A stretch of DNA of 64,000 bases from Cetorhinus maximus. Lineage: Eukaryota. The position numbers and the translations under genes are program-made. The notes beneath the pieces were generated by a model, which ran no database searches, had not been told where the DNA came from, and saw only the letters and a program-made list of their open reading frames with translations. The stretch is from contig NC_135903.1 of NCBI RefSeq assembly GCF_964194155.1, positions 1,550,001 to 1,614,000 of the forward strand, written 5' to 3'. Shown here one piece after another: positions 22,662 through 53,331 of this stretch; position 1 is the stretch's first letter, and the number at the start of each line of letters is the position of its first letter.

Positions 22662-22754
22662 TGTCTCTGCCTCTTCTCTCACTTCTCTCAAACTGACTGA
22701 TGTGAACTCCCAGTCTTCAGTCTCTGATCTGCTGCAGCACTCAGAACACATGCC

Positions 22755-25093: not shown

Positions 25094-25753
25094 TTAATTG
25101 TCCATTTTTACTTCCTCCTCAATTTTCTTCGCATCCTTCCCACTCTCCAGTTTCGGTGCCTCTTGGCCAGGATTTAGCCGGGGACTGGTTGTTGTATCCG
25201 AGGTGATGTTGACGGGCACGGTTTGTTCATTCACAGCGGGCAGTGCCAGGCGTGGGGCTTGAACCTTTAACCGACTGTCCTGTGACAAACAGCAGTTAAG
25301 ATCTTCAGCATCGACATCTTCTGGCAGCTGAAATTCTCTCCTCAACTCTTCATATTTGTAGCTGGAAGAGCCGCTGCCATCATCACTTTTCTTCTCGTGC
25401 TTTCCTGTCACCAGCACTTTTCTTCCAAGTATTTTTACCTTCAGTTCTTCTGGAGAGAATCGCTGGACATCCAGGGACAGAGAAAAGCCATTTCCCTCCT
25501 TGTCCTCTGATTGTCTTTTACCTTCTTCATTATCATCAGGTCTCTTGTCCTGATTTCTTGGTTTTTCCTCCCAAAATTCTTTTGCCAGCTCCTCAAGAAC
25601 TCGCTCCATGAAGTTCATGCTCTTTCTCGCTTCTTCCACCTGTTTCCACGTGTTGCATCCAAGCGGCTCCCAGACCCTGTGTGGAACAGGCCACAATGTG
25701 TACACAGGCTGCTGGCACAGACGTGAAGGGTGGAAAGCCCGACAGCTCAGCAT
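25094..25753 (-). CDS. hsp30: Hsp30-type sHSP copy 4, 219 aa
   Basis: Intact ORF; private changes LKVKIL, AEDL, LSQDSRL, NEQT. Confidence 0.9.
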   Translation of the reverse strand: MLSCRAFHPSRLCQQPVYTLWPVPHRVWEPLGCNTWKQVEEARKSMNFMERVLEELAKEFWEEKPRNQDKRPDDNEEGKRQSEDKEGNGFSLSLDVQRFSPEELKVKILGRKVLVTGKHEKKSDDGSGSSSYKYEELRREFQLPEDVDAEDLNCCLSQDSRLKVQAPRLALPAVNEQTVPVNITSDTTTSPRLNPGQEAPKLESGKDAKKIEEEVKMDN

Positions 25754-25846
25754 TGTCTCTGCCTCTTCTCTCACTTCTCTCAAACCGACTGATGTGAACT
25801 CCCAGTCTTCAGTCTCTGATCTGCTGCAGCACTCGAACACACGCCT

Positions 25847-26013
25847 TATATATTCTACTCCCAGAAACCCAGACATTTCCAGAATGAACTAAAGTTTGCT
25901 GGGCTCATGACACGTGAGCTGCAAATAAATGACATCTCATCCCAGCCTTGCTTTAAACAAGAATGACTCGACTCAGTGACACCCACTGGAGCCGTTCCAG
26001 AGACTTCTGGAAT
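25847..26013 (-). promoter_or_regulatory. hsp30 copy 4 promoter
   Basis: TATA and HSEs; distal HSE at 25994-26013. Confidence 0.85.
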
Positions 26014-27902: not shown

Positions 27903-28476
27903 GCCCTGAATTTTTGGGATGACAGGGAAAGGCGCACTAGTTGCACGAAGATTCCTGGGACTAAGACCCTGGAAGTGCAGCAAGAGGTGTCAGGGGTCCG
28001 GGTGGAGCTGGTAGGGGAGGCTTGGAGAGTCACGATGGGGGGGATCGGGATCTCGGATGATAGGCCGGCAGGGGAGGGAGGTCCAGAGGTCACCAGGCCC
28101 ACAGGAGAGGGCACCTGCAGTCAGAAGAGGGCTTCTGATGTGAGTCACCCACCAGCCCCCTTCCCACCCGAGATCAAAATCTCTTCATTTACGAGTTTTC
28201 CCACCTGAGCTGTCATCAGCGCGCCAGCCTAAAGATTGAGGTTGGCAAGAAACAGCCCTGAACTGGCATTAAGGGCCTTAGCTGGGGTAAGGCCAGGCTT
28301 GCACTCTGAACCCATGCCCGACCCAGCATAAAATCAGTGAAAGGTCGGGGCAGGCAGGACCCGAAGGGAATCCGTCCATCCAATGACACGCTCGCCCCCC
28401 ACCCCCACACCCCCCCCACCCACCCCCCACACCGTCTCAGCTCCCGCTGGGCATGGAGGAGCGTAAAATTCTGGCC
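27903..28476. mobile_element. Non-autonomous Harbinger-like MITE in the spacer
   Basis: Termini GCCCTGAATTTT / AAAATTCTGGCC (imperfect TIR resembling the terminus at 16121), flanked by AAT. Confidence 0.65.
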
Positions 28477-28762
28477 AATGTGGTTTTTTTTTACTGAGTG
28501 TAAAGGAAGTAAGTGTCTAGTTTTTCAGTTTAATTTTTTATGAAGTGAAAAAGCGAAATCATCATTTTTTTCAAAAGTATTTAATGTTCCAAAATAAATA
28601 TATATAAAAATAATCCACACGAATGCGGCTAACAACACAGTTCAAACATACAAGATCAAAACAATTAATTTTCAACATTATGCCTTCAAATCATAGTCTC
28701 AGAAACTCATTTCTGCATATCACCCATTCTTACATCGTGCAAAAGATAAATGTAATTGAGGT

Positions 28763-29425
28763 TTAATTGTCCATTTTTACTTCCTGCTCTTCCTGGTTCC
28801 CCTCATTCTTTCCACTCTCCAGTTTCGGTGCCTCTTGGCCAGGATTTAGCCGGGGACTGGTTGTTGTATCCGAGGTGATGTTGACGGGCACGGTTCGTTC
28901 ATTCACAGCTGGCAGTGCCAGGCGTGGGGCTTGAACCTTTAACCGACCGTCCTGTGACAAACAGCAGTTAAGAGCTTCAGCATTGACATCTTCTGGCAGC
29001 TGAAATTCTCTCCTCAACTCTTCATATTTGTAGCTGGAATAGCGGCTGCCAACATCACTTTTCTTCTCATGTTTTCCTGTCACCAGCACTTTTCTTCCAA
29101 GTACTTTCACATTCAGTTCTTCTGGGGAGAATCGCTGGACATCCAGGGACAGGGAAAAGCCATCTCCCTCCTTGTCCTCTGATTGTCTTTTACCTTCTTC
29201 ATTATCATCAGGTCTCTTGTCCTGATTTCTTGGTTTTTCTTCCCAAAATTCTTTTGCCAGCTCCTCAAGAACACGTTCCATGAAGTTCATGCTCTTTCTC
29301 GCTTCTTCCACCTGTTTCCAACTGTTGCATTCAAGCGGCTCCCAGACCCTGTGTGGAACAGGCCACAATGTGTACACAGGCTGCTGGCACAGACGTGAAG
29401 GGTGGAAAGCCCGACAGCTCAGCAT
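28763..29425 (-). CDS. hsp30: Hsp30-type sHSP copy 5, 220 aa
   Basis: Intact ORF; shares NSW, GDG and DVGSRYSS with copy 2. Confidence 0.92.
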   Translation of the reverse strand: MLSCRAFHPSRLCQQPVYTLWPVPHRVWEPLECNSWKQVEEARKSMNFMERVLEELAKEFWEEKPRNQDKRPDDNEEGKRQSEDKEGDGFSLSLDVQRFSPEELNVKVLGRKVLVTGKHEKKSDVGSRYSSYKYEELRREFQLPEDVNAEALNCCLSQDGRLKVQAPRLALPAVNERTVPVNITSDTTTSPRLNPGQEAPKLESGKNEGNQEEQEVKMDN

Positions 29426-29518
29426 TGTCTCTGCCTCTTCTCTCACTTCTCTCAAACCGACTGATGTGAACTCCCAGTCTTCAGTCTCTGATCTGCTGCA
29501 GCACTCAGAACACACACC

Positions 29519-29686
29519 TTATATATTCTACTCCCAGAAACCCAGACATTTCCAGAATGAACTCAACTTTGCTGGGTTCATGACACGTGAGCTGCAAATA
29601 AATGACATCTCATTCCAGCCTCGCTTTAATCAAGAATGACTTGACTCAGTGACACCCACTGGAGCCGTTCCAGAGACTTCTGGAAT
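29519..29686 (-). promoter_or_regulatory. hsp30 copy 5 promoter (with a perfect AP-1 site)
   Basis: TATA and HSEs; TGACTCA at 29642-29648. Confidence 0.85.
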
Positions 29687-31064
29687 GTACTCAGCCAGTG
29701 AGGGAACAGATGGGAGGAACAATGTTAGTGAGTGACAGCCTAGCAGCAGGTATAGCAAGTGCAAGAAAGTGAGTTTCGTGAGGAGCCGATCTGTTTATGC
29801 GAATGAAATGTAAACTGATATTATGGGAGAAGGCTGAGTCCATCTTTAGCTTTCTATTTTTATTGATTTTGGCGATATTAAAGCGATTTTTAACTGTGTA
29901 ATAGAGTGAAATTCAAATCTGTTTGTTTTCAGTGAAGTTCGGATTGAGATGTTAGTTCTGTTCTATTCATAATAACATGTTTAAAAATGAATTATTTACA
30001 GATAAAGCTGCTGTGCACTTTAAAGTTACTAAAATCTGTTGTCTGTTATGTGTTTTGATATGAGATTTTCAAATATTAAAAATTAATATAAATTACCGAT
30101 TGATCTAGAACCATTTAACATTTTAACTAATAAATAAGCTGTGGCATTGCCCATGTATTCCACAACCTGTGATACGAATGTTGATGTTTCCCACTGTCCA
30201 GCATCAACCTGAACACACGAGCTGTTTGTCCGTCAGTATCATCCAGTAAATTTACTGAGGAAACATTACTGCTGCCTGTCTGCAAGAAATATTACACACC
30301 ATACTGATACAGGAAGATACAGATCCCTTATTGAAATGTGCAAGATTCTTTGGGGATTGACAGGGTAGCTGGTGAGAGGATGATCCCCCTCAGGGGGAAT
30401 CAGGAACTAGGTGGCAGTTTAAAAATAAGAGCTGTGCCATTCAAATGAAGATCAGGAGAAATTTCTTCTCTCAGAGGATCGCCAGTGTTCTCACTTTTCT
30501 TCCCCAGTGAGCAGTGTCAGGCTGGGTCATTGAATATATTCACAGCTGTTTGACAGATGTTTGACAGACAATGGAGTCAAGTGTTATGGGGGGACAGACA
30601 GGAAAATGGAGGTAAGGCCACAATCAGATCAGTCATGATCTAACTGAATGGTGAAGGAGGGGATCGTGGGGCAGAATGGCCTGCGCCTGTTCCTATTGCT
30701 AATGTTCTTATGTTCAGGGGGACAGGATCAGTAATATTATTTCACTGAAACTTTATACAAGTTGCTTACAATGCAACTAACTTTGCTTTTCCTCCCAGTT
30801 ATTCATATTGAATAGATAACCCCAATGAAAGAGGATTCCACCATCTAGTAATTGAGTGGTGTCCAGTCTGGTGTCTGTGTTGGAAGATAAGCTGTTGTTG
30901 CTGCTCATTGTCAGGCTGCAGGGTAATACAGAGATTTGGTGCACTGGGTCTGTGCAATCATTTGATAAATGTTTTAACGAACTGAGTTCAATTTCAGACA
31001 GATCTTGACATAGAGAATTCTTTCTCTGGGTTTTAAATTAATTCTAGTTAATTCTAGTTAAAAT

Positions 31065-31623
31065 GCCCTGAATTTTTGGGATGACAGGGAAATGCGCACT
31101 AGCTGCGCGAAACTTCCTGGGACTAAGACCCTGGAAGTGGAGCAAACGGTGTCAGGGGTCTGGGTGGGGAAGGTAGGGAAGGCCTGGGGAGTCGTGATGG
31201 GGGGGATCGGTCTCTCGGACGATAGGCCGGCAGGGGAGGGAGCACCAGAGATCACCAGGCACACAGGAGAGGGCACCTCCAGTCAGAAGGGGGCTTCTGA
31301 TGTGAGACACCCACCAGCCCCCTTCCCACCCGAGATCAAAATCTCTTCATTCATGGATTTTCCCACCTGAGCTGTCATCAGCGCGCCAGCCTAAAGATTG
31401 AGGTTGGCAAGAAACGGCCCTTAACTGGCATTACGTGGCTACTGAAGGACCTTAACTGGGGCAAGGTCAGGTTTCTCCTCTGAGCCCCTGTCCGCCCCAG
31501 AGTAAAATTGCTGCAAGGTCGGTCCTCTCAGGAACCCAGAGGGAATCCGTCCATCCAATTACACGTTTCACCCCACCCCTACCTCAGAAACCGCTGGGCG
31601 TGGGGGAGTGTAACATGTTCGCC
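31065..31623. mobile_element. Harbinger-like MITE, copy duplicated with the spacer
   Basis: Homologous to 27903-28476 at the same spacer position. Confidence 0.65.
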
Positions 31624-31915
31624 AATGTGTTTTTTTACAGAGCGTACAGGAAGTAAGTGTCTATTCTTTCAGTCGTTTAATATCGGTTTCTTTTTATGAA
31701 GTGAAAAAACAAAATCATCATTTTTTTCAAAAGCATTTATTGTTGAGAAAAAATATATAAAAATAATCCACATGAACGCGGCTAACAGCACAGTTCAAAC
31801 ATACAATATCAAAACAATTAATTTATACCATTATGCCTTCATAATATAGTCTCAGAAACTCATTTCTGCATATCACCCATTCTTACATCGTACAAAAGAT
31901 AAATGTAATTGAGGA

Positions 31916-32578
31916 TTAATTGTCCAAATTTACTTCCTGCTCTTCCTGGTTCCCCTCATCCTTCCCACTCTCCAGTTTGTGTGCCTCTTGGCCAGGATTT
32001 AGCTGGGGACTGGTTGTTGTATCCGAGGTGATGTTGACGGGCACGGTTCGTTCATTCACAGCTGGCAGTGCCAGGCGTGGGGCTTGAACCTTTAACCGAC
32101 CGTCCTGTGACAAACAGCAGTTAAGAGCTTCAGCATCGACATCTTCTGGCAGCTGAAATTCTCTTCTCAACTCTTCATATTTGTAGCTGGAAGAGCCGCT
32201 GCCATCATCAGTTTTCTTCTCATGTTTTCCTGTCACCAGCACTTTTCTTCCAAGTACTTTCACATTCAGTTCTTCTGGGGAGAATCGCTGGACATCCAGG
32301 GACAGAGAAAAGCCATTTCCCTCCTTGTCCTCTGATTGTCTTTTACCTTCTTCATTATCATCAGGTCTGTTGTCCTGATTTCTTGGTTTTTCCTCCCAAA
32401 ATTCTTTTGCCAGCTCCTCAAGAACTCGCTCCATGAAGTTCATGCTCTTTCTCGCTTCTTCCACCTGTTTCCACATGTTGCATTCAAGCGGCTCCCAGAC
32501 CCTGTGTGGAACAGGCCACAATGTGTACACAGGCTGCTGGCACAGACGTGAAGGGTGGAAAGCCCGACAGCTCAGCAT
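31916..32578 (-). CDS. hsp30: Hsp30-type sHSP copy 6, 220 aa
   Basis: Intact ACD ORF. Confidence 0.92.
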   Translation of the reverse strand: MLSCRAFHPSRLCQQPVYTLWPVPHRVWEPLECNMWKQVEEARKSMNFMERVLEELAKEFWEEKPRNQDNRPDDNEEGKRQSEDKEGNGFSLSLDVQRFSPEELNVKVLGRKVLVTGKHEKKTDDGSGSSSYKYEELRREFQLPEDVDAEALNCCLSQDGRLKVQAPRLALPAVNERTVPVNITSDTTTSPQLNPGQEAHKLESGKDEGNQEEQEVNLDN

Positions 32579-32671
32579 TCTCTCTGCCTCTTCTCTCACT
32601 TCTCTCAAACTGACTGATGTGAACTCCCAGTCTTCAGTCTTTGATCTGCTGCAGCACTCAGAACACACGCC

Positions 32672-32839
32672 TTATATATTCTACTCCCAGAAACCCAGAC
32701 ATTTCCAGAATGAACTCAACTTTGCTGGGTTTATGACACGTGAGCTGAAAATAAATGACATCTCATCCCAGCCTTGCTTTAAACAAGAATGACTCGACTC
32801 AGTGACACCCACTGGAGCCGTTCCAGAGACTTCTGGAAT
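32672..32839 (-). promoter_or_regulatory. hsp30 copy 6 promoter
   Basis: TATA and HSEs; distal HSE at 32820-32839. Confidence 0.85.
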
Positions 32840-34727
32840 GTACTCAGCCAGTGAGGGAATAGATGGGAGGAACAATGTTAGTGAGTGACAGCCTAGCAGC
32901 AGGTATAGCAAGTGCAGGAAAGTGAGTTTCGTGAGGAGCCGGATCTGTTTGTCCTAATGAAATGTAAACTGATTTTGTGAGGGAATGATGAATCATTCTG
33001 GCTTTCTAGTATTGCTCTTTTCAATGGTTTTTGCGATACTAAAGTGATATTTAACGATGTAAAAGAGTGAAATTCAAATCAGGTTCGTTTAAGTGAAGTT
33101 CGGATCAAGGCTTTGGTTCCGTTCTATTCGTAATGACATATGTTTAAAAATGGAATAGTTACAGATAAAGCTGCTGTGCACTTCAAAGTTACTAAAACCT
33201 GTTGTCTGTTGTGTTTTGACATGAGATTTTCAAATATTAAAAATTAATATAAATTACCGATTGATCTAGAATCTCAGCTCAAAATGAGGCCATTCGGTCC
33301 ACCATGTCTGTATCAGCGCTTTGGAAGTGCTATCCAATTACTCCCAACTCCCCTGCTCTTTCGCCAAAACTCTGCAAATTATTTCTTTGCCGGTATATAT
33401 CCTTTTCCATTTTGGATGTTGCTATTTAAGTTTTCACATCTTCCATTCCAGTACCAGAAAAGCACACAAATCAAAACTGCTTGTCTTCCCTCTGGTCTCT
33501 TCACGGATAAAATCAACATTGATAACATATTGTCGATGAAATATAGCAATGTGTTAACTTTCTACTGTATTATATTAAATTCCTAAAAATGAATGGTCTA
33601 TCATTAATGTTGTTGCAAAGCTCCTAACTTCCTAAATTGTTAACTGACAGTTTCCATCATACACAAGAATGTCCTCCAATCTGCAAAATAAATCTTTATT
33701 CCCAAGGTATCTTGGCAGCATTGTGATGAAATGGATTCCAGATTCAATATAAGTTTATAGCCTGATTTTACATTTTTACACCATTTAACATTTTAACTAA
33801 TAAATAAGCTGTGGCGTTGCCCATGTATTCCACAACCTGTGATACGATTGTTGATGTTTCCCACTGTCCAGCATCAACCTAAACACACGAGCTGTTTGTC
33901 TGTCAGTATCATACAGTAAATTCACTGAGGGAACATTACTGCTGAGAGACACTGCAAGAAATATTACACACCATACAGATCCAGTCAGATACAGATCTCT
34001 TCTTGAAATGTGTAAGATTTTGTGGGGCTGGACAGGGTAGATGCTGAAAGGATGCTCCCCCTCATGGGGTCACCAGGAACCATGTGGAGGATTAAAAATA
34101 GGAGCTGTGCAATTTAAGATGAAGATGAAGCAAAATTTCTTCTCTCAGAGAGTCGTTACTGTTCGAAATTTTCTTCCCCAGAGACCAGTGGAGACTGGGT
34201 CATTGAATATATTCAAAGCTGTTTGACAGATGTTTGATTGACAATGAATTCAAGTGTTATGGGGGGACAGACAGGAAAATGGAGGTAAGGCCACAATCAG
34301 ATCAGTCATGATCTAATTGAATGGTGAAGGAGGGGATCGTGGGGCAGAATGGCCTACGCCTGTTCCTATTCTTTATGTTCTTATGTTCAGGGGGACAGAA
34401 TCAGTAATATTATTTCACTGAAACTTTATACAAGTTGCTTACAATGCAACTAACTTTGCTTTTCCTCCCAGTTATTCATATTGAATAGATAACCCCAATG
34501 AAAGAGGATTCCACCATCCAGTAATTGAGTGGTGTCCAGTCTGGTGTCTGTGTTGGAAGATAAGCTGTTGTTGCTGCTCATTGTCAGGCTGCAGGGTAAT
34601 ACAGAGATTTGGTGCACTGGGTCTGTGCAATCATTTGATATATGTTTTAATGAACTGAGTTCAATTTCAGACAGATCTTGACATAGAGAATTCTTTCTCT
34701 GGGTTTTAAATTAATTCTAGTTAAAAT

Positions 34728-35287
34728 GCCCTGAATTTTTGGGATGACAGGGAAAGGCGCACTAGCTGCATGAAGATTCCTGGGACTAAGATCCTGCAAG
34801 TGAAGCAAATGGTGTCAGGGGTCCGGGTGGGGAAGGTAGGGAAGGCCTGGGGAGTCGCGATGGGGGTAATCGGGCTCTCAGACAATAGGCTGGCAGGGGA
34901 GGGAGGTCCAGAGGGCACCAGGCCCACAGGAGAGGGCACCTCCAGTCAGAAGGGGACTTCTGATGTGAGTCACCCACCAGCCCCCTTCCCACCCGAGATC
35001 AAAATCTCTTCATTCACGGGTTTTCCCACCTGAGCTGTCATCAGCGCGCCAGCCAAAAGATTGAGGTTGGCAAGAAACAGCCCTGAACTGGCATTAAGGG
35101 CCTTAGCTGGGGTGAGACCAGGCTTCCACTCTGAACCCATGCCCGACCCAGCATAAAATCAGTGAAAGGTCAGGGCAGGCAGGACCCGAAGGGAATCCGT
35201 CCATCCAATTACACGCTCCCCCCCCACCCCACCCCACACACACCGTCTCAGCTCCCGCTGGGCATGGAGGAGCTTAAAATTCTGGCC
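34728..35287. mobile_element. Harbinger-like MITE, copy duplicated with the spacer
   Basis: Homologous to 27903-28476. Confidence 0.65.
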
Positions 35288-35540
35288 AATGTGGTTTGTT
35301 TTTACTGAGTGTAAAGGAAGTAAGTGTCTAGTTTTTCAGTTTAATTTGTTATGAAGTGAAAAAGCGAAATCATCATTGTTTTCAAAAGTATTTATTGTTC
35401 CAATATAAATATATATAAAAATAATCCATATGAACGCTGCTAACAACACAGTTCAAACATACAATATCAAAACAATTAATTTTCAACATAATGCCTTCAT
35501 ATCATAGTCTCAGAAACTCATTTCTGCAAATAAACCATTC

Positions 35541-36236
35541 TTACATTGTACAAAAGTTAACTGTAAATGAGTTTTGATTGTCCATTTTTCCTTCCTCCTC
35601 TTCCTTGTTCCCCTCATCCTTCCCACTCTCCAGTTTCGGTGCCAATTGGCCAGGATTTAGCCGGGGACTGGTTGTTGTATCCGAGGTGATGTTGACGGGC
35701 ACGGTTCGTTCATTCACAGCTGGCAGTGCCAGGCGTGGGGCTTGAACCTTTAACCGACCGTCCTGTGACAAACAGCAGTTAAGAGCTTCAGCATCGACAT
35801 CTTCTGGCAGCTGAAATTCTCTCCTCAACTCTTCATATTTGTAGCTGGAAGAGCCGCTGCCATCATCACTTTTCTTCTCGTGTTTTCCTGTCACCAGCAC
35901 TTTTCTTCCAAGTACTTTCACATTCAGTTCTTCTGGAGAGAATCGCTGGACATCCAGGGACAGGGAAAAGCCATCTCCCTCCTTGTCCTCTGATTGTCTT
36001 TTACCTTCTTCATTATCATCAGGTCTCTTGTCCTGATTTCTTGGTTTTTCCTCCCAAAATTCTTTTGCCAGCTCCTCAAGAACTCGCTCCATGAAGTTCA
36101 TGCTCTTTCTCGCTTCTTCCACCTCTTTCCACGTGTTGCATTCAAGCGGCTCCCAGACCCTGTGTGGAACAGGCCACAATGTGTACACAGGCTGCTGGCA
36201 CCGACGTGAAGGGTGGAAAGCCCGACAGCTCAGCAT
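35541..36236 (-). CDS. hsp30: Hsp30-type sHSP copy 7, 231 aa (stop-loss extension)
   Basis: Intact ORF; TAA after MDN is CAA here, adding QNSFTVNFCTM. Confidence 0.9.
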   Translation of the reverse strand: MLSCRAFHPSRRCQQPVYTLWPVPHRVWEPLECNTWKEVEEARKSMNFMERVLEELAKEFWEEKPRNQDKRPDDNEEGKRQSEDKEGDGFSLSLDVQRFSPEELNVKVLGRKVLVTGKHEKKSDDGSGSSSYKYEELRREFQLPEDVDAEALNCCLSQDGRLKVQAPRLALPAVNERTVPVNITSDTTTSPRLNPGQLAPKLESGKDEGNKEEEEGKMDNQNSFTVNFCTM

Positions 36237-36329
36237 TGTCTCTGCCTCTTCTCTCACTTCTCTCAAACCGACTGATGTGAACTCCCAGTCTGCAGACTCT
36301 GATCTGCTGCAGCACTCAGAACACACACC

Positions 36330-36497
36330 TTATATATTCTACTCCCAGAAACCCAGACATTTCCAGAATGAACTCAACTTTGCTGGGTTTATGACACGTG
36401 AACTGAAAATAAATGACATCTCATTCCAGCCTCGCTTTAATCAAGAATGACTTGACTCAGTGACACCCACTGGAGCCGTTCCAGAGACTTCTGGAAT
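36330..36497 (-). promoter_or_regulatory. hsp30 copy 7 promoter (with a perfect AP-1 site)
   Basis: TATA and HSEs; TGACTCA at 36453-36459. Confidence 0.85.
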
Positions 36498-36954
36498 GTA
36501 CTCAGCCAGTGAGGGAACAGATGGGAGGAACAATGTTAGTGAGTGACAGCCTAGCAGCAGGTATAGCAAGTGCAAGAAAGTGAGTTTCGTGAGGAGCCGG
36601 ATCTGTTTATGCGAATGAAATATAAACTGATATTCTGGGAGAATGCTGAGCCCATCTTTGGCTTTCTAGTATTGCGACTTTTAGTGATTTTGGTGATATT
36701 AAAGTGATTTTTAACTGTGTAATAGAGTGAAATTCAAATCTGTTTGTTTTAAGTGAAGTTCGGATCGAGGTATTCGTTCTGTTCTATTCATAATAACATG
36801 TTGAAAAATGGATTATTTACAGATAAAGCTGCTGTGCACTTCTAAGTTACTAAAACCTGTTGTCTGTATTGTGTTTTGATATGAGATTTTCAAATATTAA
36901 AAATTAATATAAATTACCGGTTGATCTAGAGGAGTACATTTAATTGCAGTTGAA

Positions 36955-37426
36955 ACTGGGATTTTAGCCAGCCTCCAGTTTCCCAAAGGTGGCAGGGCCA
37001 GTTTAAGTGCCTGGAGGCAGGCACCCTTCAGCTAGGCCAGGGGGCCATCTCTCCAGGCAGGCCTAGAGGCCCTTTCTGCCTGTGTGGGTGCAGGAGCATC
37101 CACAGGCCACCCTGTAGCAGGCCCCCTATAGTGGAGGCCTGGTGGCTGAATCTATTTTTCAATTAAAGGTATAAAGAAGTTGGAAAACCTCCGTGTTGAA
37201 GCACCGACTCCCTTATGTACCTTCTAATGCAGCTGCTGTTTCTCTGATTGGCCCTCCAGCTTTGAGAGGCCCACCTGCCATCCTTAATTGGATGACGAAC
37301 CTGCCCTTTGGCCATCAATTGTCTGTGCTGGTGAAAATCAGAGGTCAATGACTGTTTCCCCTAGGCCCCCTGAGTTTGGACAGTCCCGGCCTCTGTTTCC
37401 TGCCTCCAGATGGAAAATCCAGACCA
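36955..37426. mobile_element. Harbinger-like MITE fragment
   Basis: GC-richer block bounded by CTGGGATTTT...AAAATCCAGACC. Confidence 0.45.
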
Positions 37427-39070
37427 CAGAATTATAGCACAGAGGAGGCCATTTGCCCCATCATGCCTGTGCCAGCTCTTTGAAAGAACTGTCCAATTTA
37501 GTCCCATGCCCCGGCTTTAATCCCATAATCCTGCAAATTAGTTCCCTTCAAATAAAGCGCAATTGGCTTTTGAAAGTTCCTATGGAATCTGATTCCACCA
37601 CCCTTTCAGGTAGTGCATTCCACATATAACAACTCTTGCGGAAAAGAAATTCTCCTCCGTTCACCTTGAGTTCTTTTGTTAATTATTTAAATCTGACAGC
37701 TATGTTACTGATCCACTTGCTTGCGGAACCAACTTCTCCTGACTTGCTTTCTCTAAAAGGCGTTCATAATTCTGAACACTATTAGGTCTTCACTTGATTT
37801 TCACTACCCTAATTGGACTCGAAATGTTAACTGTTTCTCTCTTCACAGATGCCGCCAGGCTTGTTGGGTTTGTCCAGCACTTTCTGTTTTTATTTCAGAT
37901 CATCAGCATCTGCAGTATTTTGCTTTTATAAGCATCCTCATCCTGGTAAATCTCTATATCCTCTCCCAAGGCCTTCACAGCTAAGGAGAACAATTCCAGC
38001 TTCTCCAATCTTTCCACATAACCAAATTTTCTCAGAAAGTGCTGGACAAACCCAGAAAGTCTGGCAGTACCTGTGGAGGGAGAAACAGTTAACATTTCGC
38101 GTCCAATTGGACTTGAAATGTTAACTCTGTTTCTCTCTTCACAGATGCTGCCAGGCTTGTTGGGTTTGTCCAACACTTTCTGTTTTCATTTAAGATCGTC
38201 AGCATCTGCAGTATTTTTCTTTTACAAGCATCCTCATCCTGGTAAATCTCTATATCCTCTCCCAAGGCCTTCACATCTTTCCTCTAGTTTGCTACCCAGA
38301 ATGGTACACAATATTCTAGCTGAGGCCTAACCAGTGAATTGTAAATGTTTAATATGACTTTGTATTCAGTGCCCCTATTTACAAAGTTAAGTATCCGATA
38401 TACTTTCTTAACTGCCTTATCAAAGTGCCCTGCCACTTTCAAGGATATGTGAAGACGCACCCGCAAGTTCCTCTGCTCCTGTATCCTCACAAATTGATGC
38501 CATTTAGATTATACTTTCTTTCTGTGTTGTTCCTCTCAAAGTTCATCGCTTCACACTTCACCATATTAAATTTCATTTGTCTATGTCCCCCGAAGATCTG
38601 ATACTACCCTGCTCACTATTTACTACATTGACAAGTTTTACATTACCTACAGACTTCAAAATTGTACTCCCTATACCCAGCTCCAGGTAGGTCATTTATA
38701 TATCACAAGAAATTAAGCAATGGACCTTCTTCTCTCCTGGGTCTTCAATGTATAGATCTCTCCAGCCAGAAAAATATCCATTTACTCCAATTCTCTGTTT
38801 CCTATTCCTTAGCTAATTACGCACCCAAGTTTCCACTGTCCTTTAATGCCATGTGCTTCTATTTTCCATATAAGTCTGTCATGTGGTATTTGATCAAATG
38901 TCTTTTAGAAGTCCATACATACAACATCTACTGCAACTTTCATCCACTTTTTCTTTTACTTCATTAAAGAGCGCAATTGGTTTAGTCACACAATTTGCCT
39001 TTGATAAACCTATGCTGGCTGTCCCTTATTAATTCATACTTCTCCAAGAGAGAATTAATTTTGTCCTTGA
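37427..39070 (-). mobile_element. Old CR1 fragment interrupted by duplicated Penelope-like pieces
   Basis: Minus-strand SLKVAGHFDKAVKK..LVRPQLEYCVPFW; ~170-bp direct repeat at ~37811 and ~38106. Confidence 0.7.
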
Positions 39071-41089
39071 CATTCACTGAACTTTCATTCAATTGTCACC
39101 AGGGCCACTTATTTCCAACTACAGACATCGCCTACGCCAGTCTTCCTGCTACTAAACCTCTCCTTTAATTTCTTGCTACCTTCTAGTCTTGATTTATCTA
39201 ATCTCTTGTTTGTGGCCTCGTAGCCCTTAAACTCCAAATCATCCAAAATTCAAACATGCATATTAGTTTACACACCACATGCCCATCACAAACATCCTTG
39301 CTGGCCTACACTAGCTGCCCATCCCACAACACATTGCCCTTAAGATCCTTAAATTTGTTTCTCAAATTCCTGAGTGTCCTTGCACCCCCTCCTCCATCCC
39401 CGCAATTACCTCTGGTCTTAGATCCCATGAATTTTTCATCATTTGGCCATTGTTTAGTGCATTGCTCTCCCTGCCACTGAAAGCAGAACCTACAGCTAAC
39501 TCTGTCGCTCCCTCAGCTGTACTGACTCCCCACTTCTCTTGCCTGCTATAAAAACCATGTCAAAATTTATCTTTCTTAAAAGCCTTTCAGACACTGCTAC
39601 TCATGTCTACCCGTTACTGACCGTTCCCTTTATCTTTATCTATTATTTTCTCCTGGCATGTGCCTAGGGATGTTTCTACAATAAAGCCACTCTCAAAATG
39701 CAAGTTATACATAAATATATACGTTTTGCCCCCTCCCCCTGCACCCCCACCTCCCCATCTCTATGAAGTAATAATTCAGCGTTAGCAGTACACCAAAGGA
39801 TTACACCAGGCTCATTCTACATCCATTAAGGTTGTATTGGGGCCTGGACTTAATATTCTGTGAAACAAACTATTGAAGAAGTAACTGACATCTCTCTCAC
39901 ATGGCTGTATCTTATCACTCTGTCCATCAATAAAATATTGTTACCGATTTTGTTAGCAAAATGTGTGTTAATTTGTGCCAGTGCTTTTAATATGTTAATC
40001 TTATAGGATCTATTACTCCGCCCCGCCCAATGTCATGCACATGAAGGAGTCACCGTACACTCCAAATGAGCAAGAAGTCACTTCCAGGATTCTGAGCTAA
40101 TTTCTTTCCAGTCATATGACCAGAACAGGAGTTGTGCAGTGAGTGTTTGGCTGCTTGTGGTGTCACTTTAGAGTCTGGAGTGTAAAGCAGCCATTCAGAA
40201 AATGAGCACATAGCAACTGCCCAATAATCTCTGCTTCAGTTAGTACCCAACTTTTCTGAAAACATTTCTGAAGATATGAGAATTCAACAAATCAGAGATG
40301 TATTATAAATGTTTGTACTTCTAGTCTTTCACTTTTGAGTGTTCTGTAAAATGAGATTAACCCACTGAAGCTCATCCCTTTAGTTCTCAAGTTCTTTCAT
40401 TACTGCATCCAACTAGATTTTAAGCATCTCTAATGTTGTTGTTTCTGTGTTTAATTAACTTTTGCTAATTTAATTTCATGACCCATTGGTCCTATTTTCC
40501 AGGTTTACCTTCAAATAATATTTTAGGTGTGCTATCAACATAATGTAATATTTTATGTACAATTGATTAAAGTTGGTAGCTATATTCTCCTTCTGAGAAT
40601 TTAATCTACTCATCTTGCACAGACTCCTGACCAGAAATCGGTATAACAGCAAACCTGTGTCTACTTTAGATTAAACAGATAAACCAAGTGAGAAAGATCA
40701 CATTCATTCACTACCAGGAAGGAATATTTTGGAAACAAGTTCCAGTTGCCAGTCGTTATGAAATGGTAGGTTTACCCAGGCAGCAAGTTGGGCAGAATTA
40801 TCTCCCTTTGAGTTGTAAAATTCAATGAAATACCTGTAGCCATAGACATGTACATCCAATAATTTCATTTTATTGAGTTGACAAATTGAATCATAGATCA
40901 TTTCTCAAAGGTTCAATGTTTTAACAAAAAGGGAAAAAATAGGTAGTTATCTACAGTAATGGGACATTGAATATCAGCTTTTCAACATTATGACACCCAT
41001 TTCACATGTGCTCACATCTGGCAATATTTTGTTGTTCTTTATAACTACAAAAATTCAGTGTAACTAAGTCTTAAGATGTCTATTTTGTT

Positions 41090-41737
41090 TCAGCCTTTCT
41101 TGTTCCCTTCAAGATTCCCGCTCTCCTGTTTCTGTGCCTCTTGTGCCTCTTGGCCAGGATTTAGCCGGGGACTGGTTGTTGTATCCGAGGTGATGTTGAT
41201 GGGCACAACTCGTTCATTCACAGCTGGCAGTGCCAAGCGTGGGCCTTGAACATTTAACCGACCGTCCTGTGACAAACAGCAGTTAAGAGCTTCAGCATCG
41301 ACATCTTCTGGCAGCTGAAATTCTCTCCTCAACTCTTCATATTTGTAGCTGTAAGAGCCACTGCCATCATTGCTCTTCTTCTCGTGTTTTCCTGTCACCA
41401 GCACTTTTCTTCCAAGTAATTTCACATTCAGTTCTTCTGGGGAGAATTGCTGGACATCCAGGGACAGAGAAAAGCCATCTCCATCCTTGTCTCCTGAGTG
41501 TTTTTTACCTTCTTTGTTATCAGGTTTGTTGTCCTGATTTCTTGGTTTTTCCTCCCAAAATTCTTTTGCCAGCTCCTCAAGAACTCGATCCATGAAGTTC
41601 ATGCTCTTTCTTGCTTCTTCCATAAGTTTCCACATGTTGCATTCAAGCGGCTCCCAGACCCTGTGTGGAACAGGCCACAATGTGTACACAGGCTGCTGGC
41701 ACCGACGTGAAGGGTGGAAAGCCCGACAGCTCAGCAT
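41090..41737 (-). CDS. hsp30: Hsp30-type sHSP copy 8, 215 aa, most divergent copy, with unique flanks
   Basis: Intact ACD ORF; more substitutions (DVQQF, LNVQGP, VVPINI) and a different C-terminus. Confidence 0.92.
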   Translation of the reverse strand: MLSCRAFHPSRRCQQPVYTLWPVPHRVWEPLECNMWKLMEEARKSMNFMDRVLEELAKEFWEEKPRNQDNKPDNKEGKKHSGDKDGDGFSLSLDVQQFSPEELNVKLLGRKVLVTGKHEKKSNDGSGSYSYKYEELRREFQLPEDVDAEALNCCLSQDGRLNVQGPRLALPAVNERVVPINITSDTTTSPRLNPGQEAQEAQKQESGNLEGNKKG

Positions 41738-41830
41738 TGTCTCTGCCTCTTCTCTCACTTCTCTCAAACCGACTGATGTGAACTCCCAGTCTTCAGTCTC
41801 TGATCTGCTGCAGCACTCAGAACACACGCC

Positions 41831-46143: not shown

Positions 46144-46515
46144 GGTGTAACAATACCCTTGGTAAAGGGCAAGAAACTATATAAATATATTGAATTTAAT
46201 TGTCCACAGCTGAGGGAGATTTATGCTCGATGGGCTGGAATCGATGGACTGTGCAATGTGGCATTGTGCTGTCACATGTAAGTTGTTGTCAATAATCAGG
46301 GTGTCAAATGATACAAGTTCAGCGAACATTCCATCTGGTTTAGAAACAATAACTTCACTATTTTGTTTAGAGACTAAAATGGTAACAGAAAGTTAAGTTT
46401 AGAATAACTAGAAATGGGGAAAATAAATTTGTCATATTAAAACACTCACTTTACTCTCGCTTGGCTTTCAAATGCACGACTAGATTTTAAAAAAAGTTTT
46501 CAAAACAATGTTAGT

Positions 46516-46521
46516 TTTATT
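46516..46521 (-). terminator. Candidate polyadenylation signal of RPL41
   Basis: AATAAA on the minus strand ~177 nt after the stop, followed by a U-rich tract. Confidence 0.55.
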
Positions 46522-46697
46522 TTATAACATCAAAAACCGCATAAAACACATTCCAAAACAAAGTTTCATAACTGATAAAACAAACAGGTATCCCCTGAAA
46601 CATGAAAGCTTGAAAATCATTCACTGACTACTGACAAAGCCAAAATTTCAACACAGCTGCCAGTCACCATGGTATTGCTGTTCTCCAATTGGGGGCT

Positions 46698-46740
46698 TCA
46701 CTTGGACCTTGCCCTCATCTTCCTCCGCTTGCGCTTCAAT
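46698..46740 (-). CDS. RPL41: Ribosomal protein eL41 coding exon 3: (R)[13 protein letters not shown]
   Basis: tttatttctattcctatatag|A TTG AAG CGC AAG CGG AGG AAG ATG AGG GCA AGG TCC AAG TGA. Confidence 0.93.
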
Positions 46741-47919
46741 CTATATAGGAATAGAAATAAATACGTTTGAAGTGAGCTATGGGCAGCATTTGCAAAATTA
46801 ATGCAGCTGGCATACAAATAGTAAAAATGGATAAACTCTTTTTATAATAATGCTGGGAACAGTGGAACAATTTTTCCTCGCACTTCTATATTCTAGTATT
46901 ACACTTTCCACACACTGTTTAAAATGTAAAATCATATGTTTTATGTCTAGAGGTTTGAGCTGATCTACTATGAAGTGCTGGTCTTTGTTTTCAAATCCCT
47001 TCATGACCTCATCCCTCCCTACCTCTCTAATCTCCTCCAATCCCACAACCTTCAGAGGTATTGGCACTCCTCGGATTCTCACCTCATGCACTCAAATATA
47101 GTTGGTCCACTATTGTGACGGCCGTACCTTCACGGGCCTAGACCCTAAGCTCTGGAATTCCCTCCTGCATCATTTCCCCTCTCAACCTCCCTTTCCTAAA
47201 CTTACCTCTTTGACCAAGCTTTTGGTCATCTGATCTTGTATTTCCTTAAGTGGCTCGGTGTCCTATTTGTTTCATAATGCTCATGGGAACTGCCCTGTCA
47301 CATTTCATTACTTTAAAGGCACTACATAAATATAAATTGTTGTTGATGAAAAGCCTACTCTAAAACACAAATTGCTTTGACTGATCAACGTTCCTTTTAA
47401 AAATTTTACCATTGTGTTTGCCACACCTATGGTGTCTGTAGGTGTAACTATAATATGGTTTGCCCTTGATTTTTAGTCCCGAGTCTGGATTTCTATGCAG
47501 CTTGGTTTAAGTCACAGTTCCATTCGGTCACTGGGCAGCAGAATGGAGCAGATATCAACCCCCTGAAAATGTGCAATTTTTCTCAATAACAATCTTCTCT
47601 ATCCAAAAGAAATAGATGTATATATCCTTTCAACCTGCAAGGATGAGATTCTGAAAAGCAAAGAATGAATTCTCAAAGATTTATCTTTCCATAAATTGTG
47701 CTTATATTCATTTGTGCTGTCCTGTGAACACCACAGAACACAGCGGCAGCACTTGGGAAAACAAAGTGCAACAAAATATTGAAAAGACCAAAGCCAGTGA
47801 GCCTATCCCTCTCCCTGGCAATTGTCCAAGGCCAAATTAGACTTTTTGCAAGCTTGGTGTCATATTTGATCCTAAGAGGAGCTTCCGACCAAATATCCAT
47901 GTCATCAATAACACCAAAA

Positions 47920-49606
47920 GACCATAAGACATAGCAGCAGAAATTAGGCCATTCAGCCCATCGAGTCTGCTCCGCCATTCAATCATGGCTGATAAGTTTC
48001 TCAACCCATTCTCCCGCCTTCTCCCCGTAACCTTTGATCCCCTTACCAATCAAGAACCTATCTATCTCGGTCTTAAATACACAATGACCTGGCCTCCACA
48101 GCCTTCCGTGGCAATGAATTCCATAGATTCACCACTCTCTGGCTAAAGAAGCTTCTCCTCATCTCAGTTCTAAAAGGTCTTCCCTTTACTCTTGAGGCTG
48201 TGCCCTCGGGTCCTAGTCTCTCCTACTAATGGAAACAGCTTCCCCACGTCCACTCTATCCAGGCCTTTCAGTATTCTGTAAGTTTCAATCAGATCCCCCC
48301 TTAACCCTTCTAAACTCCATCGAGTTTAGACCCAGAGTCCTCAAACGTTCCTCATATGTTAAGCCTTTCATTCCTGGGATCGTTCTCGTGAACCTCCTCT
48401 GGACCCTCTCCAGGGCCAGAACACCCTTCCTGAGATACGGGTCCCAAAATTGCTCACAATATTCTAAATGTGGTCTGACCAGAGCCTTATAAAGCCTCAG
48501 CAGCACATCCCTGCTTTTATATTCTAGTCCTCTCGAAATAAATGCCAACATTGCATTTGCCTTCCTAACTACCGACTCAACCTGCAAGTTAACCTTAAGA
48601 GAATCCTGGACTAGGACTCCCAAGTCCCTTTGCACTCCAGATTTCTGAATTCCCTCCCCATTTAGAAAATAGTCTATGCCTCTATTCTTCCTACCAAAGT
48701 GCATGACCTCACACTTCCCCACTTTGTATTCCATCTGCCACTTCTTTGCCCATTCTCCTAACCTGTTCAAATCCTTCTGCAGCCTCCCCGCCTCCTCAAT
48801 ACTACCTGTCCCTCCACCTATCTTTGTATCATCTGCAAACTTAGCCAGGATGCCCTCAGTTCCTTCATCTAGATCATTAATGTATAAAGTGAAAAGTTGT
48901 GGTCCCAACACTGACCCCTGCGGAACTCCACTAGTCATCGGCCACCATCCTGAGAAGGACCCCCTTATCCCTACTCTCTGCCTCCTGCCAGACAGCCAAT
49001 CTTCTATCCATGCTAGTACCTTGCCTCTAACACCACGGGCTCTTATCTTACTGAGCAGCCTCCTGTGCAGCACCTTGTCAAAGGCCTTCTGGAAGTCCAA
49101 GTAGATAACATCCATTGGCTCTTTGTCTAACCTACTCGTTACCTCCTCAAAGAATTCTAACAGGTTTGTCAGGCATGACCTCCCCTTGATGAAACCATGC
49201 TGACTTTGCCCTATTTTACCATGCACTTCCAAGTATTCTGAAATCTCATCCCTAATAATGGACTCTAAAATCTTACCAACGACCAAGGTCAGGCTAATCG
49301 GCCTGTAATTTCCCGTCTTTTGCCTCATTCTCTTCTTAAACAGGGGGGGGGGGTTACATTAGCGATTTTCCAGTCCTCTGGGACCCTCCCTGACTCCAGT
49401 GATTCCTGAAAGATCACCACTAACGCCTCCACTATCTCGTCAGTTATCTCCTTCAGAACTCTGGGGTGTAATCCATCTGATCCAGGCGATTTATCCACCT
49501 TCAGACCTTTCAGTTTTCCTAGCACTTTCACCTTGGTAATGGCCACCATATTCACCTCTGCCCCCCGACTCTCTTGAACTTTGGGGATGTTACTCGTGTC
49601 TTCCAC
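47920..49606 (-). mobile_element. Young 5'-truncated CR1 inserted in an older L2/SINE-tail element (~47790-50127, +), in RPL41 intron 2
   Basis: 347-aa RT ORF at 48285-49328 (LDFQKAFDKV, GVPQGSVLGP, KFADD); frameshift at the G-run ~49343; host element continues on both sides. Confidence 0.92.
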
Positions 49607-51627
49607 AAAACACTGCTTGTTTCCACCTCCTCATGCCTCAGCTTATGTGCTGCTGAAACATTCACCCAAGCCTTGGTTACCCCTAAACTTGATTATTCCA
49701 ATGCACTCCTGGCTGGTCTCCTACATTCTATCCTGCATAAGCTTGAGGTCATTCAAATCTCTGCTGCCTGTGGACTAACTCACACATGTTCTGTTCACCC
49801 ATCACCACTGTGCTTGGTGACCTGCATTAGAATCGAGGCATTGCTTAACTGAGAGCCAACGTTCTGCTCTTTTTTCAAATCCCTATCTCTGAAGGTTCTT
49901 GCCCACAGTTGCCAAGGGCCTAAGCTCTGGCATTCCCTCCTAAAACTTCTCTACCCCTCTCTTTCCTCCTTTATGGCGCTCCTTAAATCCTACCTCTTTG
50001 ACCAAGCCCTTGGTCATCTGTCCTAATATTTCCTGTGGTTCAGGGTCAAATCTTGATTCATAATGCTCCAGTGAAGCACCTTGAGACATTTTGTTATGTT
50101 AAAAGGTGCTACATAAATACAAGTTGTTTTCATTCCAAGTTTGTTTTATTCTGGGACAATGCTAGTAGACAGTTAATACTTTACTGTGGAAAGAATAATT
50201 AACCTGTTCAGTCTTAACTTTGTACTGGCTGTTCTACGTCACACTTCATAAGAGTTTTAAAAGCTGCAATTGTTTATGTTCCAAGTGTTAGTTAATGCAA
50301 ATGATGTAAAGTTTTGTCACTACTTCCAAAGTTGGAGGGAGGAAGCAACCAACATTCAAACATACGATGTAATTTGTTCAGCTGTGTATGGCAAGCAGTT
50401 ATTAAAAAAACAAAATTGGAAATTTAAGCATGTTAAACAGTTTGAACTGAAACTTAGAGAAACAGGTTAGGCAGTCATATATAAATGATGTTTTACAAAA
50501 TAGTTCCATTGCAGCAGTTACAATTTTCAAAAACTACTTGTTCATGGGATGTGGGTATCACTGGCTAGGTCAGCATTTATTGGCCATTCCTAATTGCCCT
50601 TGAGAGGCCCTTGGGCCACCTTCTTGAACTGCAGCAGGCCATGTGTTGTAGTAAAACCCACAGTGCTGTTAGAAAGGGAGTTCCAGGATTTTGACCCAGT
50701 GACAGTGAAGGGACAAATTTTCCCATCCATCTCTTCTTTGATAAATCTGCTTTTAAATCTAAAATAAAGTTTGAAGTTGTAACACTCTGCTGCTTTTGAC
50801 TCCTATGAAGGAATGAATTTCAGTAATTTATGCAGAAGTTTTGTTCATCCCAGGCTTGCAGTCAGAAACTTACCTACATATTGGGGCCAGACTGGGGGTG
50901 GTGCGCCAGTTAAATATGACAGGTGGCAAGCCCACCCCCTTCCCAACCCAGTCCCCATAAAATGGTAAGAGGAGGGGCCCCAAAATCAGCGGCCTGTCTG
51001 CAAATTTTAAAACAATAATTAACAGGCAATTGAGCCTGTTAACACGCCAATTGACCCAAATTACACTGTCCACACCATCAAACGGTTGGCATGGGAGGCT
51101 CCCCAATCCCTCCCTGTTCAATATCCCCGAACTACCTCTCTCTGGGATACACATGGTCTTCATTCCAGGGCCTGCCTGCAGTGTTTGAGACTGACATTAT
51201 TATGAGGGGGAAAGCAATACATGCTCTTTCACCCTCCCCCTCAAACCACCACCCCACTGTAAAATAAGCTCGAGAAGCCTGAAGTATCTAAAGGAGAGCA
51301 GAAAGGTCTCAAAACAAAAACCCACTCACCACTGCACGAACTTGATTCCCCCCCCCCCTGTCTGGAAGGTAAAGAAACTGAAGAGGCAACCATAAATTGT
51401 GCAGAAAGCAAGATGGGACAGGAGGCCAGGAGATAAAAAGTCAGAAAAAAGCCAACAGAGCAAGGCATCACTTTAAATTTGATTTCTCAAATTAGGACAA
51501 CAATAAATAGGCAGGAATATGATTGGGATTGAAGTACAAAAAATTGACACCATCCCTCAATTCACTAGTTGAAATGTAACGCATTCATTTTAATAATATG
51601 CTGGGAAAATTGAAGGTTTATACAGAC

Positions 51628-51650
51628 CTGCGCATCCGTTTCTTCCTCCA
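51628..51650 (-). CDS. RPL41: Ribosomal protein eL41 coding exon 2 (23 nt): WRKKRMR(R)
   Basis: ttttaatctgcag|TGG AGG AAG AAA CGG ATG CGC AG|gtctgt. Confidence 0.92.
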
Positions 51651-52748
51651 CTGCAGATTAAAAGAAAAATAGACTATTAGAATTTTGTTGTCTTTTTTCT
51701 GGAACATTGACAGATTTGCTCTTGCATGTTTTATTTCTATTTATCAGAAATTAAAGTGCACAATTTACTACAACTCAGTAATATACAGCAGCTCTAGATA
51801 AAAATTATGCTTTTAATAAAATCCAAGCCAATCTGGTTTTCAATCACTTCTTCCTTATATGAACAATCTACTTTGGCTATTCTGCAAACAACATGGGCCC
51901 TAAACCCATATACCTGTCCTGTTCCCGTCTTCCCCTTAACCATTCACCTAATCTCAAATATTAACGTGCTTTATGCTTCAATCACTAACTTCACTTCCAC
52001 CTCACAATATTGTGTAAAGCTTGGGCTCTTTTGTTTCCCCGTCTTCAATCTTTTGCATTTAAGCTCGTATCTATGGCCACTCAATCTTAACCCCCCCCCT
52101 CCCACCCCCAGATCATCAGAAAATGTTGCTTGCTTATCCAGTCACCCCACAATCCACAATCTCCTCCAATCTGACCAAAAATAGCTCTGATATTAAAAAA
52201 AAAGCCCATACCTGAAACACCATTCTCTGTACTGACCTTTCATCAGTTATACATTCTAATTCAGAGTTCTAATGACAGCAGTTTGTTTTTAGGCTCACAT
52301 CCAGTGTTTGGATGTTAACGAGGATGGTATCTAACCATTAAAAACCCCTACAAACAGCAGTTACCCCCACCAAACCCCAAACCAGTGAACAAGGGAAAAT
52401 ATCTAAAGGCCAACCACGTGTTGGGGAGACCCAGTCTGACTTATTCTTTTAGCTGAAGTTAGTTCTGTCGTAACTTGGAACCCGAGTTTGTGCCCTCTCC
52501 AAATGGAAGGGGCATTAATAATTTAAACCTCCTTCCCGCCTGATGATTTAATTATCCGCATCCACTGAATAAATATTGAAAGAGGCGCGAGGCACCAGCC
52601 CCCCACCCCCCAGCAATGGCAGGGACCTTCACCACAAACATGAGGGGAGGAATAAATACCTTCCACACAAAACAGTTACCATTTCTTTTCACAAATTATG
52701 ATATTGGGATTTATTTATTTATTCATTCGTTCTCCACACATCACTCAC

Positions 52749-52760
52749 CTTCGCCCTCAT
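52749..52760 (-). CDS. RPL41: Ribosomal protein eL41 coding exon 1: MRAK
   Basis: ggaccATG AGG GCG AAG|gtgagt, a perfect donor with A at -3; exons 12+23+43 = 78 nt = 25 aa plus stop. Confidence 0.92.
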
Positions 52761-53097
52761 GGTCCGAAAGCCAAGCTGCTCTCACTCAGTGTAAGGTTGC
52801 AGTGCGCATGCGCCACACCACTAATTTTCTTTTAAAAAACTACAATTCCCATGATGCCACACACCTAGATAAAAAATATTTTGAAGTGATTTTTCATCTA
52901 GCGCGGTTGTTTGTGTCTTAATTGATTATTTTAATCTTAAATAACCTGTTGATTTTCATTTTTGTTGCGAGCGCGTGTGAGGCGGTTGGACTACATTTTC
53001 CAGGGTGCTCCAGGCTGCGCGCCTGCGCACTGGCGGCCCTGGCTGGTTGCCATGGCAGCGGGTGGGGGGGTTGGAGGGGGTGGGATCCTCGCGGGTG
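52761..53097. promoter_or_regulatory. Bidirectional RPL41/KAT2A promoter at the edge of a CpG island
   Basis: NRF1-type TGCGCATGCGC at 52803-52813 and GCGCCTGCGCA at 53019-53029; ZNF143/THAP11-type ACTACAATTCCCATGATGC at 52839-52857 and ACTACATTTTCCAGGGTGC at 52990-53008; RFX X-box GTTGCCATGGCAGC at 53046-53059. Confidence 0.8.
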
Positions 53098-53331
53098 ATG
53101 GCGGAGGCACCGCAAGCCTCGCAGGCCCGGACTCAGCTGCCCTATCCGTCCCCATGCCAGGCCCAGACCGTGGCCTCGCCCTCTCCGGTCGCCGCCGCCC
53201 CGAGCCCGGCGGACCCGGCTCGCCCCGGCGCCAGCAGCAGCCAGCAGCGCTCGGTCCAGCGCAAGGCCCAGGTCCGCGCTTTCCCCCGGGCCAAGAAGCT
53301 GGAGAAACTCGGCGTCTTCTCAGCCTGCAAG
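53098..53331 (+). CDS. KAT2A: Histone acetyltransferase KAT2A/GCN5 coding exon 1
   Basis: MAEAPQ...DPARPG..QQRSVQRKAQVRAFPRAKKLEKLGVFSACK|gtaaga; DPARPG and GVFSACK favour KAT2A over KAT2B. Confidence 0.93.

Follow-up and report, generated by a model that had tools for sequence, protein, structure and literature searches.

A stretch of 64,000 nucleotides (nt) from Cetorhinus maximus (contig NC_135903.1, positions 1,550,001 to 1,614,000; here called the window, which lies on the sequence labelled C26) raises the question of whether three micro-exons between an hsp30-type array and KAT2A form a working gene for the ribosomal protein eL41 (rpl41), and how such a gene would relate to human RPL41. 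A reading of the sequence alone had proposed the gene and suggested that it might be a second vertebrate paralogue retained from a genome duplication. Our analysis confirmed the window locus as a genuine, spliced eL41/RPL41 gene and revealed two further intron-bearing rpl41 loci in the same genome. The three loci are very probably ohnologues of the two vertebrate genome duplications (2R), situated in HOXB-, HOXD- and HOXC-type blocks, and 2R ohnologues kept by dividing expression would be the probable explanation as a whole.

Checking of positions and translation showed that the window rpl41 consists of three minus-strand coding exons of 12, 23 and 43 nt encoding a 25-aa peptide, with the following parts:

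52749..52805, minus strand: exon 1, with a 5' untranslated region (UTR) of ~45 nt and the coding part 52749-52760 (MRAK); start placed at ~52800-52810 by 6 retrocopy 5' ends
51651..52748, minus strand: intron 1, 1098 nt, GT..AG, phase 0; joint 51650/52749 present in contigs of runs X1 and X4
51628..51650, minus strand: exon 2, 23 nt
46741..51627, minus strand: intron 2, 4887 nt, GT..AG, phase 2, containing LINE-like (long interspersed nuclear element) and other repeats; joint 46740/51628 present in X1 and X4
46698..46740, minus strand: coding part of exon 3, 43 nt including TGA
46490..46697, minus strand: 3'UTR, with AATAAA at 46516-46521; cleavage placed at ~46490-46510 by retrocopy 3' ends

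The acceptors of both introns are rich in pyrimidines, and the start context is GGACC-ATG-A. The Arg/Lys-rich peptide matches Pfam PF05162 with an E-value of 6.7e-12 (45.6 bits compared to a cut-off of 22.3) and is 100% identical to the ribosome-bound eL41 chain PDB 4v6w_Cn, which we take to come from a fly ribosome. Residue 22 is the sole difference from the human-type PDB chain (Ala22 in the window peptide, Gln22 in the human-type chain). An exact look-up in protein collections returned neither eL41 sequence. Chance matches are rare: across 150 resampled windows the exon-2 and exon-3 patterns had none, and that of exon 1 averaged 0.027 per window, while reversed-pattern controls for exons 2 and 3 gave no match across the 4-Gb genome. 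The sequence-only reading is thereby borne out in its exon sizes, GT-AG introns, start context, downstream AATAAA and 25-aa eL41 product. Within intron 2, positions 48285-49630 hold a LINE-like fragment, presumably of CR1 type.

Both exon joints, on which the proposal of a functional gene had been made to depend, were sought in four public runs that are only presumed to be RNA; two of the runs derive from the related organisms A and B. The joints 52749/51650 and 51628/46740 occur at the exact boundaries in contigs from two of the four runs (X1 and X4, covering organisms A and B and two studies), and neither was present in X13 or X9. Two points weigh against taking these contigs as spliced transcripts: the short side of the joints measures 23-25 letters, below a 31-letter bar, with exon 2 itself being 23 nt, and retrocopies that exist as DNA are a possible alternative source of joined contigs. 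One X4 contig runs at least 200 nt beyond the poly(A) signal (window 46300-46500), which suggests a longer 3'UTR form in organism B.

The retrocopies themselves record past splicing. A search of the genome with the 3'UTR revealed 10 dispersed copies of the window gene with 77-98% identity. Seven of the nine inspected consist of exons joined without introns, and the remaining two are 5'-truncated UTR pieces. Spliced rpl41 mRNA was therefore present in the germ line, and the spread of identities indicates a long history of expression of the window gene. Six retrocopies retain the leader, with 5' ends converging at ~52800-52810 in mixed sequence, hence a 5'UTR of ~45 nt with neither an intron nor a pyrimidine-tract start; as mapped from these ends, the window gene has no terminal oligopyrimidine (TOP) start.

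Comparison of the window gene with four old retrocopies (of the seven coding ones), counting the differences common to at least three, points to purifying selection: 21 of 231 UTR sites changed, as against 0-1 of ~57 replacement sites (one-sided p 0.008-0.044, the lower value applying when a codon-9 change is left out and 0.044 when it is counted). Some caution is due here, as the replacement at codon 9 is common to three of the four old retrocopies (it is probably CpG decay), the old retrocopies are possibly non-independent, and some UTR changes may be CpG decay too. Ala22 is retained in all seven coding retrocopies. With two introns and purifying selection, the window locus lacks the missing introns and decayed frame of a processed pseudogene. 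Six young rpl41 retrocopies (L004, L008, L009, L010, L011, L013) have intact 25-aa frames and would confound read mapping; among them, L004 (C1:130.71 Mb) combines the full window-gene leader with an identical coding sequence. Some young intact retrocopies could be expressed retrogenes.

The exon-2 pattern with both splice sites has three genome-wide matches, and also three at one mismatch. The exon-3 pattern has 19, of which three are preceded by an intron and 16 are intronless (one retrocopy of the window gene and 15 of a locus on C11). A looser exon-3 pattern gave 23 matches, the four new ones comprising one chance match, two C11 retrocopies and one uninspected match on C22. The intron-bearing loci are the window gene on C26, a gene on C11 and a copy on the unplaced contig C1680, so that a separate paralogue does exist as had been proposed, with the number of loci being three, not two. 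Intron positions are common to all three (for C1680, at the two exon-2 boundaries only), and the encoded peptides end in ARSK (window), QRSR (C11) and QRSQ (C1680).

The C11 gene, unforeseen in the sequence-only reading, begins with pyrimidine-rich sequence and is interrupted by an intron in the 5'UTR and by two in the coding sequence (686 and 1853 nt); it lies ~40 kb from PIKFYVE exons. It is the most retro-copied locus, with at least 39 retrocopies (of 81 candidates 40 were scored, among them the parent gene itself) compared to 10 for the window gene and 0 for the C1680 copy; these counts rank past germ-line expression only.

The C1680 copy is located upstream of SMARCC2 exon 1, at a distance of 14 kb, and C40 carries the other exons of that gene. 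At its right end, C1680 shares 56% of 16-mers, in the same orientation, with the repeat right after a C40 gap (14.70 Mb), and its left end is a 37 kb simple repeat. From this sequence, the contig appears to belong in that gap (C40:14701612-14701811). The region around the gap is dense in satellite arrays, which also occur within rpl41 intron 1 and SMARCC2 intron 1. Exon 1 of this copy was not found on C1680 or in C40 14.35-14.75 Mb; its pattern has 37 genome-wide matches, none on C40, and the eight inspected loci are repeats or chance. The joint between its exons 2 and 3 is absent among the 15 joints listed of 603, the four runs being swamped by repeats, and its 3'UTR bin has no cover in four of four runs, which is not evidence of silence.

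A fourth copy, sought in a HOXA-type block, was not detected by a fuzzy peptide search of the 100 kb preceding the KAT2B exons (C3) or SMARCC1 (C4). Genome-wide, the exon-2 pattern at one mismatch and the looser exon-3 pattern revealed none either, a more diverged copy being able to escape them.

Assignment of the chromosomes to blocks of one paralogon used neighbour genes and Hox9 N-termini for the labels HOXA (C3), HOXD (C11) and HOXB (C26). C26 carries KAT2A, RAB5, a Hox9 gene and an ERBB-family exon, with no Hox11 match, and C11 carries PIKFYVE, ERBB4, Hox9 and Hox11. C40 (19.4 Mb) bears the SMARCC2 exons and an ESYT gene. In humans, the order at 12q13.2 is RAB5B..ERBB3-PA2G4-RPL41-ZC3H10-ESYT1-MYL6B-MYL6-SMARCC2 (PMC6262175), so together with the RAB5 of C26 a RAB5 gene stands near rpl41 in two blocks. 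The shark X has been described as a ~17 Mb chromosome with homology to a portion of human chromosome 12 (PMC10620051). C40 is thus probably a 12q13-like, HOXC-type block and the X chromosome. Because SMARCC2 and ESYT1 adjoin RPL41 in humans and the shark X matches part of human chromosome 12, the C1680 copy is probably X-linked and the probable orthologue of human RPL41. The search that had been advised for a copy near erbb3, pa2g4 or esyt1 was successful in part: a 12q13-type copy was found beside SMARCC2, and PA2G4 and ERBB3 were not located in the genome.

Two sets of exons were observed near the C40 gap. Those at L142, L153 and L156 (C40:14.40-14.54 Mb) have no Pfam match, and we take them to be SPRYD3, at 12q13 in humans. 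The exon at L075:2680-3105 (C40 ~14.553 Mb, minus strand), presumably of a calcitonin-receptor-like gene, possibly represents another ohnologue absent in humans.

The three loci are DNA-level duplicates with shared intron positions, and each occupies its own chromosome within one paralogon, amid paralogous neighbours, some of the A/B/C/D labels being provisional. The yeast-type chain 3j6x_81 ends in VRARSK and Ciona eL41 in ARSK (supplement of PMC7072992), so Ala22 is ancestral; the earlier view of the ARSK ending as the old form agrees with these sequences and with the identity to 4v6w_Cn. Gln22 is common to the C11 and C1680 copies and human. As a derived state of the C- and D-block copies it fits the (C,D) grouping seen in Hox and ErbB trees (PMC2622764), albeit as a single character.

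Several observations weigh against an origin in 2R. The C1680 copy, with no located exon 1, is possibly a recent relic. Searches for Hox9 and Hox11 found no HoxC member in the assembly, so that the identity of C40 depends on SMARCC2, on an ESYT gene at a distance of 11.7 Mb and on the presumed SPRYD3 exons, and gene order around its rpl41 copy differs from human. The C26 ERBB exon scored slightly higher to EGFR than to ERBB2, and the RAB5 gene of C26 is indistinguishable as to type A, B or C. On C11, no second near neighbour was found, none of 77 hand-picked open reading frames (ORFs) having a credible Pfam match. By nucleotide distance (12, 13 and 15 of 66), C and D do not form a group, and Simakov 2020 (PMC7269912) was unable to pair the Hox chromosomes. 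Finally, the evidence comes from one genome, and a 25-aa protein (75 nt) is too short for a gene tree.

Two further features bear on the promoter of the window gene:

53098..53331, plus strand: KAT2A coding exon 1, head-to-head with rpl41 (PDB 7by1 KAT2A, E 2.8e-8)
52804..53097, no strand: bidirectional promoter probably common to rpl41 and KAT2A, with two GCGCANGCGC-type sites (52804, 53019) and two ACTACA-TCC(C)-type sites

In the KAT2A assignment, only KAT2A represents the domain in PDB, KAT2B being outside the comparison. The distance from the rpl41 start to the KAT2A ATG is ~290 nt. We take the GCGCANGCGC-type sites to be NRF1-like and the ACTACA-TCC(C)-type sites, at 52839 and, imperfect, at 52990, to be ZNF143-like. 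The NRF1-like pattern has just two matches in the 64-kb window, both in the rpl41-KAT2A gap, and the CpG observed/expected ratio is 0.50-0.61 in the two 1-kb bins at this gap. Judged from these motifs, rpl41 and KAT2A probably share one bidirectional promoter.

We propose that the copies were kept through division of expression, and not through altered protein function. The C11 copy would be the main, growth-regulated source of eL41 of the TOP type. The window gene, on its promoter probably shared with KAT2A, is predicted to be a TOP-free secondary source, less coupled to growth signals, and the probably X-linked C1680 copy, the probable human RPL41 orthologue, would be minor in the germ line. 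This model is the simplest one because retrocopy counts rank the copies and their leaders differ. By the same counts, the main germ-line copy of the shark is a different one from the probable orthologue of human RPL41.

The protein itself may instead have been the reason for keeping the ohnologues, with the ARSK, QRSR and QRSQ ends tuning the subunit bridge and giving distinct ribosome types to different tissues. Each copy indeed has its own C-terminus, and Ala22 persists in every coding retrocopy of the window gene. Since the window peptide is identical to a solved ribosome-bound eL41, it can be expected to occupy the rRNA socket of bridge eB14 in the 80S ribosome, where eL41 limits subunit motion and rotation and supports translation accuracy (PMC13485352). 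Yet merely one or two residues differ, at the tail, Ala22 and Gln22 are both found in single-copy species, and eL41 is non-essential in yeast and mouse (PMC13485352). Moreover, the retention of Rps27/Rps27l has been attributed to expression partitioning (PMC10313321), in parallel to the division of expression proposed here. We therefore regard tuning of the protein as unlikely to be the reason.

The extra copies may also have arisen later, in the cartilaginous-fish lineage, by DNA transposition or small segmental duplication, their placement on HOX chromosomes being coincidental. The gene is small (3-7 kb) and could be moved whole, and the rearranged gene order near the C40 copy would suit such an event. 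A tblastn survey of 13 chordates, none of them cartilaginous fish, found RPL41 duplicated in teleosts only and present once in tetrapods and gar (PMC7072992). This result agrees with the suggestion that the window paralogue was lost in mammals, although tblastn could miss exons of 4, 8 and 14 codons. Divergence between the loci argues the other way. Between any two loci, 7-9 of the 22 codons in exons 2-3 show silent differences and 1-2 show replacements; alignment of the 3'UTRs is no better than that of shuffled sequences, and the few intron matches fall within repeat-like stretches. By a rough, post hoc estimate, random relocation would place two copies on two different sister HOX chromosomes in ~1% of cases, and a RAB5 gene near rpl41 in two blocks would be a further coincidence. 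A later duplication would also need a reversion, as the window copy has the ancestral Ala22 whereas human and the other two copies have Gln22. Taken together, these data make a late origin improbable. Plain redundancy, with the window ohnologue tied to the KAT2A promoter, no consequential regulatory difference and a decaying C40 copy, would suit the short distance between the two genes with its symmetric motif pairs and a C40 copy that lacks retrocopies and whose exon 1 was not found in the assembly, but is very improbable, as a shared promoter would not hold the protein under purifying selection and the C40 copy retains splice sites, an open frame and mostly silent differences.

Starting from 2R ohnologues kept by division of expression, a wider and tentative scenario may be outlined. 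Jawed vertebrates may have begun with 3-4 rpl41 ohnologues from which lineages chose different main genes. Mammals would have kept the HOXC-block copy; in sharks, the HOXC block would have become the X, with its copy nearly silent in the germ line, and two autosomal copies, one TOP-regulated and one TOP-free on the KAT2A promoter, would have taken over. If so, shark and human 'RPL41' are hidden paralogues, shark ribosomes carry three different central-bridge peptides, and further micro-exon copies may sit unannotated in gar, coelacanth, frogs or birds. It is also possible that a sex chromosome caused production of a dosage-sensitive protein to pass to autosomal paralogues.

The wider neighbourhood of the window gene agrees with the location first described, between KAT2A and an hsp30 array:

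1944..41830, no strand: hsp30-type small heat-shock array, downstream of rpl41, with 8 ORFs in the window and 21 including the left flank; context only

All three array ORFs tested with Pfam belong to the HSP20 family. Between RAB5 and rpl41 (C26:1504000-1592000), the array runs as one short minus-strand ORF, 14 on the plus strand and then six on the minus strand, often at ~3.7-kb spacing. We assume that it occupies the position of the single mammalian HSPB9. The RAB5 gene is ~110 kb from rpl41, beyond the 21 hsp30-type ORFs; a RAB5 DNA pattern had no match because an intron falls inside it. The human order being RAB5C-HSPB9-KAT2A, the region would have the same order with rpl41 added. Broken ORFs lie at window 19142-20608 between the two opposed hsp30 blocks, possibly a processed pseudogene and presumably like the nucleoporin TPR. 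Fragments at 16169-19116 resemble a DNA transposon, which we take to be of Harbinger type.

Of the ribosomal-protein duplicates that the vertebrate genome doublings produced, very few persisted. RPL41 is not known to be one of them and does not appear on the published 2R ribosomal-protein list (PMC10313321, PMC7072992). A full-text literature search, with most subscription journals outside its coverage, turned up no description of rpl41 paralogues in sharks or from 2R. While the eL41 family and 2R ribosomal-protein ohnologues are already known, the three-copy shark rpl41 set is new, on the basis of one genome. Three copies of a 25-aa, non-essential ribosome part provide a compact test of dosage, expression division or specialised ribosomes, and the three peptides are swappable into an existing RPL41-knockout cell line. 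They also caution that micro-exon genes may be overlooked or mislabelled in tblastn surveys and orthology assignments.

Among known systems, the window gene is closest to eL41/RPL41 itself (eS32, PF05162), with which it has in common a 25-aa basic peptide one residue from the human-type chain; it differs in having Ala22 for Gln22 and in its linkage to KAT2A and RAB5, not PA2G4. Its three exons, with no 5'UTR intron, contrast with the four exons of tilapia rpl41a/b (PMC7072992) and with the gene on C11. Dozens of processed RPL41 pseudogenes or retrogenes exist in the shark genome, some of them derived from the window gene, whereas the window locus is an intron-bearing parent. The teleost pair rpl41a/rpl41b (3R; PMC7072992) is alike in being intron-bearing duplicates from a genome doubling, but its two proteins are the same and it arose in the teleost duplication, while the shark peptides diverge at residues 22 and 25 and their genes belong to HOX paralogons. 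The likeness extends to the 2R ohnologues RPS27/RPS27L, RPL22/RPL22L1, RPL3/RPL3L and RPL7/RPL7L1 (PMC10313321, PMC7072992), which are similar in their separate chromosomes, intron positions, paralogous flanks and mostly silent divergence. Compared to these pairs, shark rpl41 has three copies, not two, and the most-retrocopied one is not the probable human orthologue.

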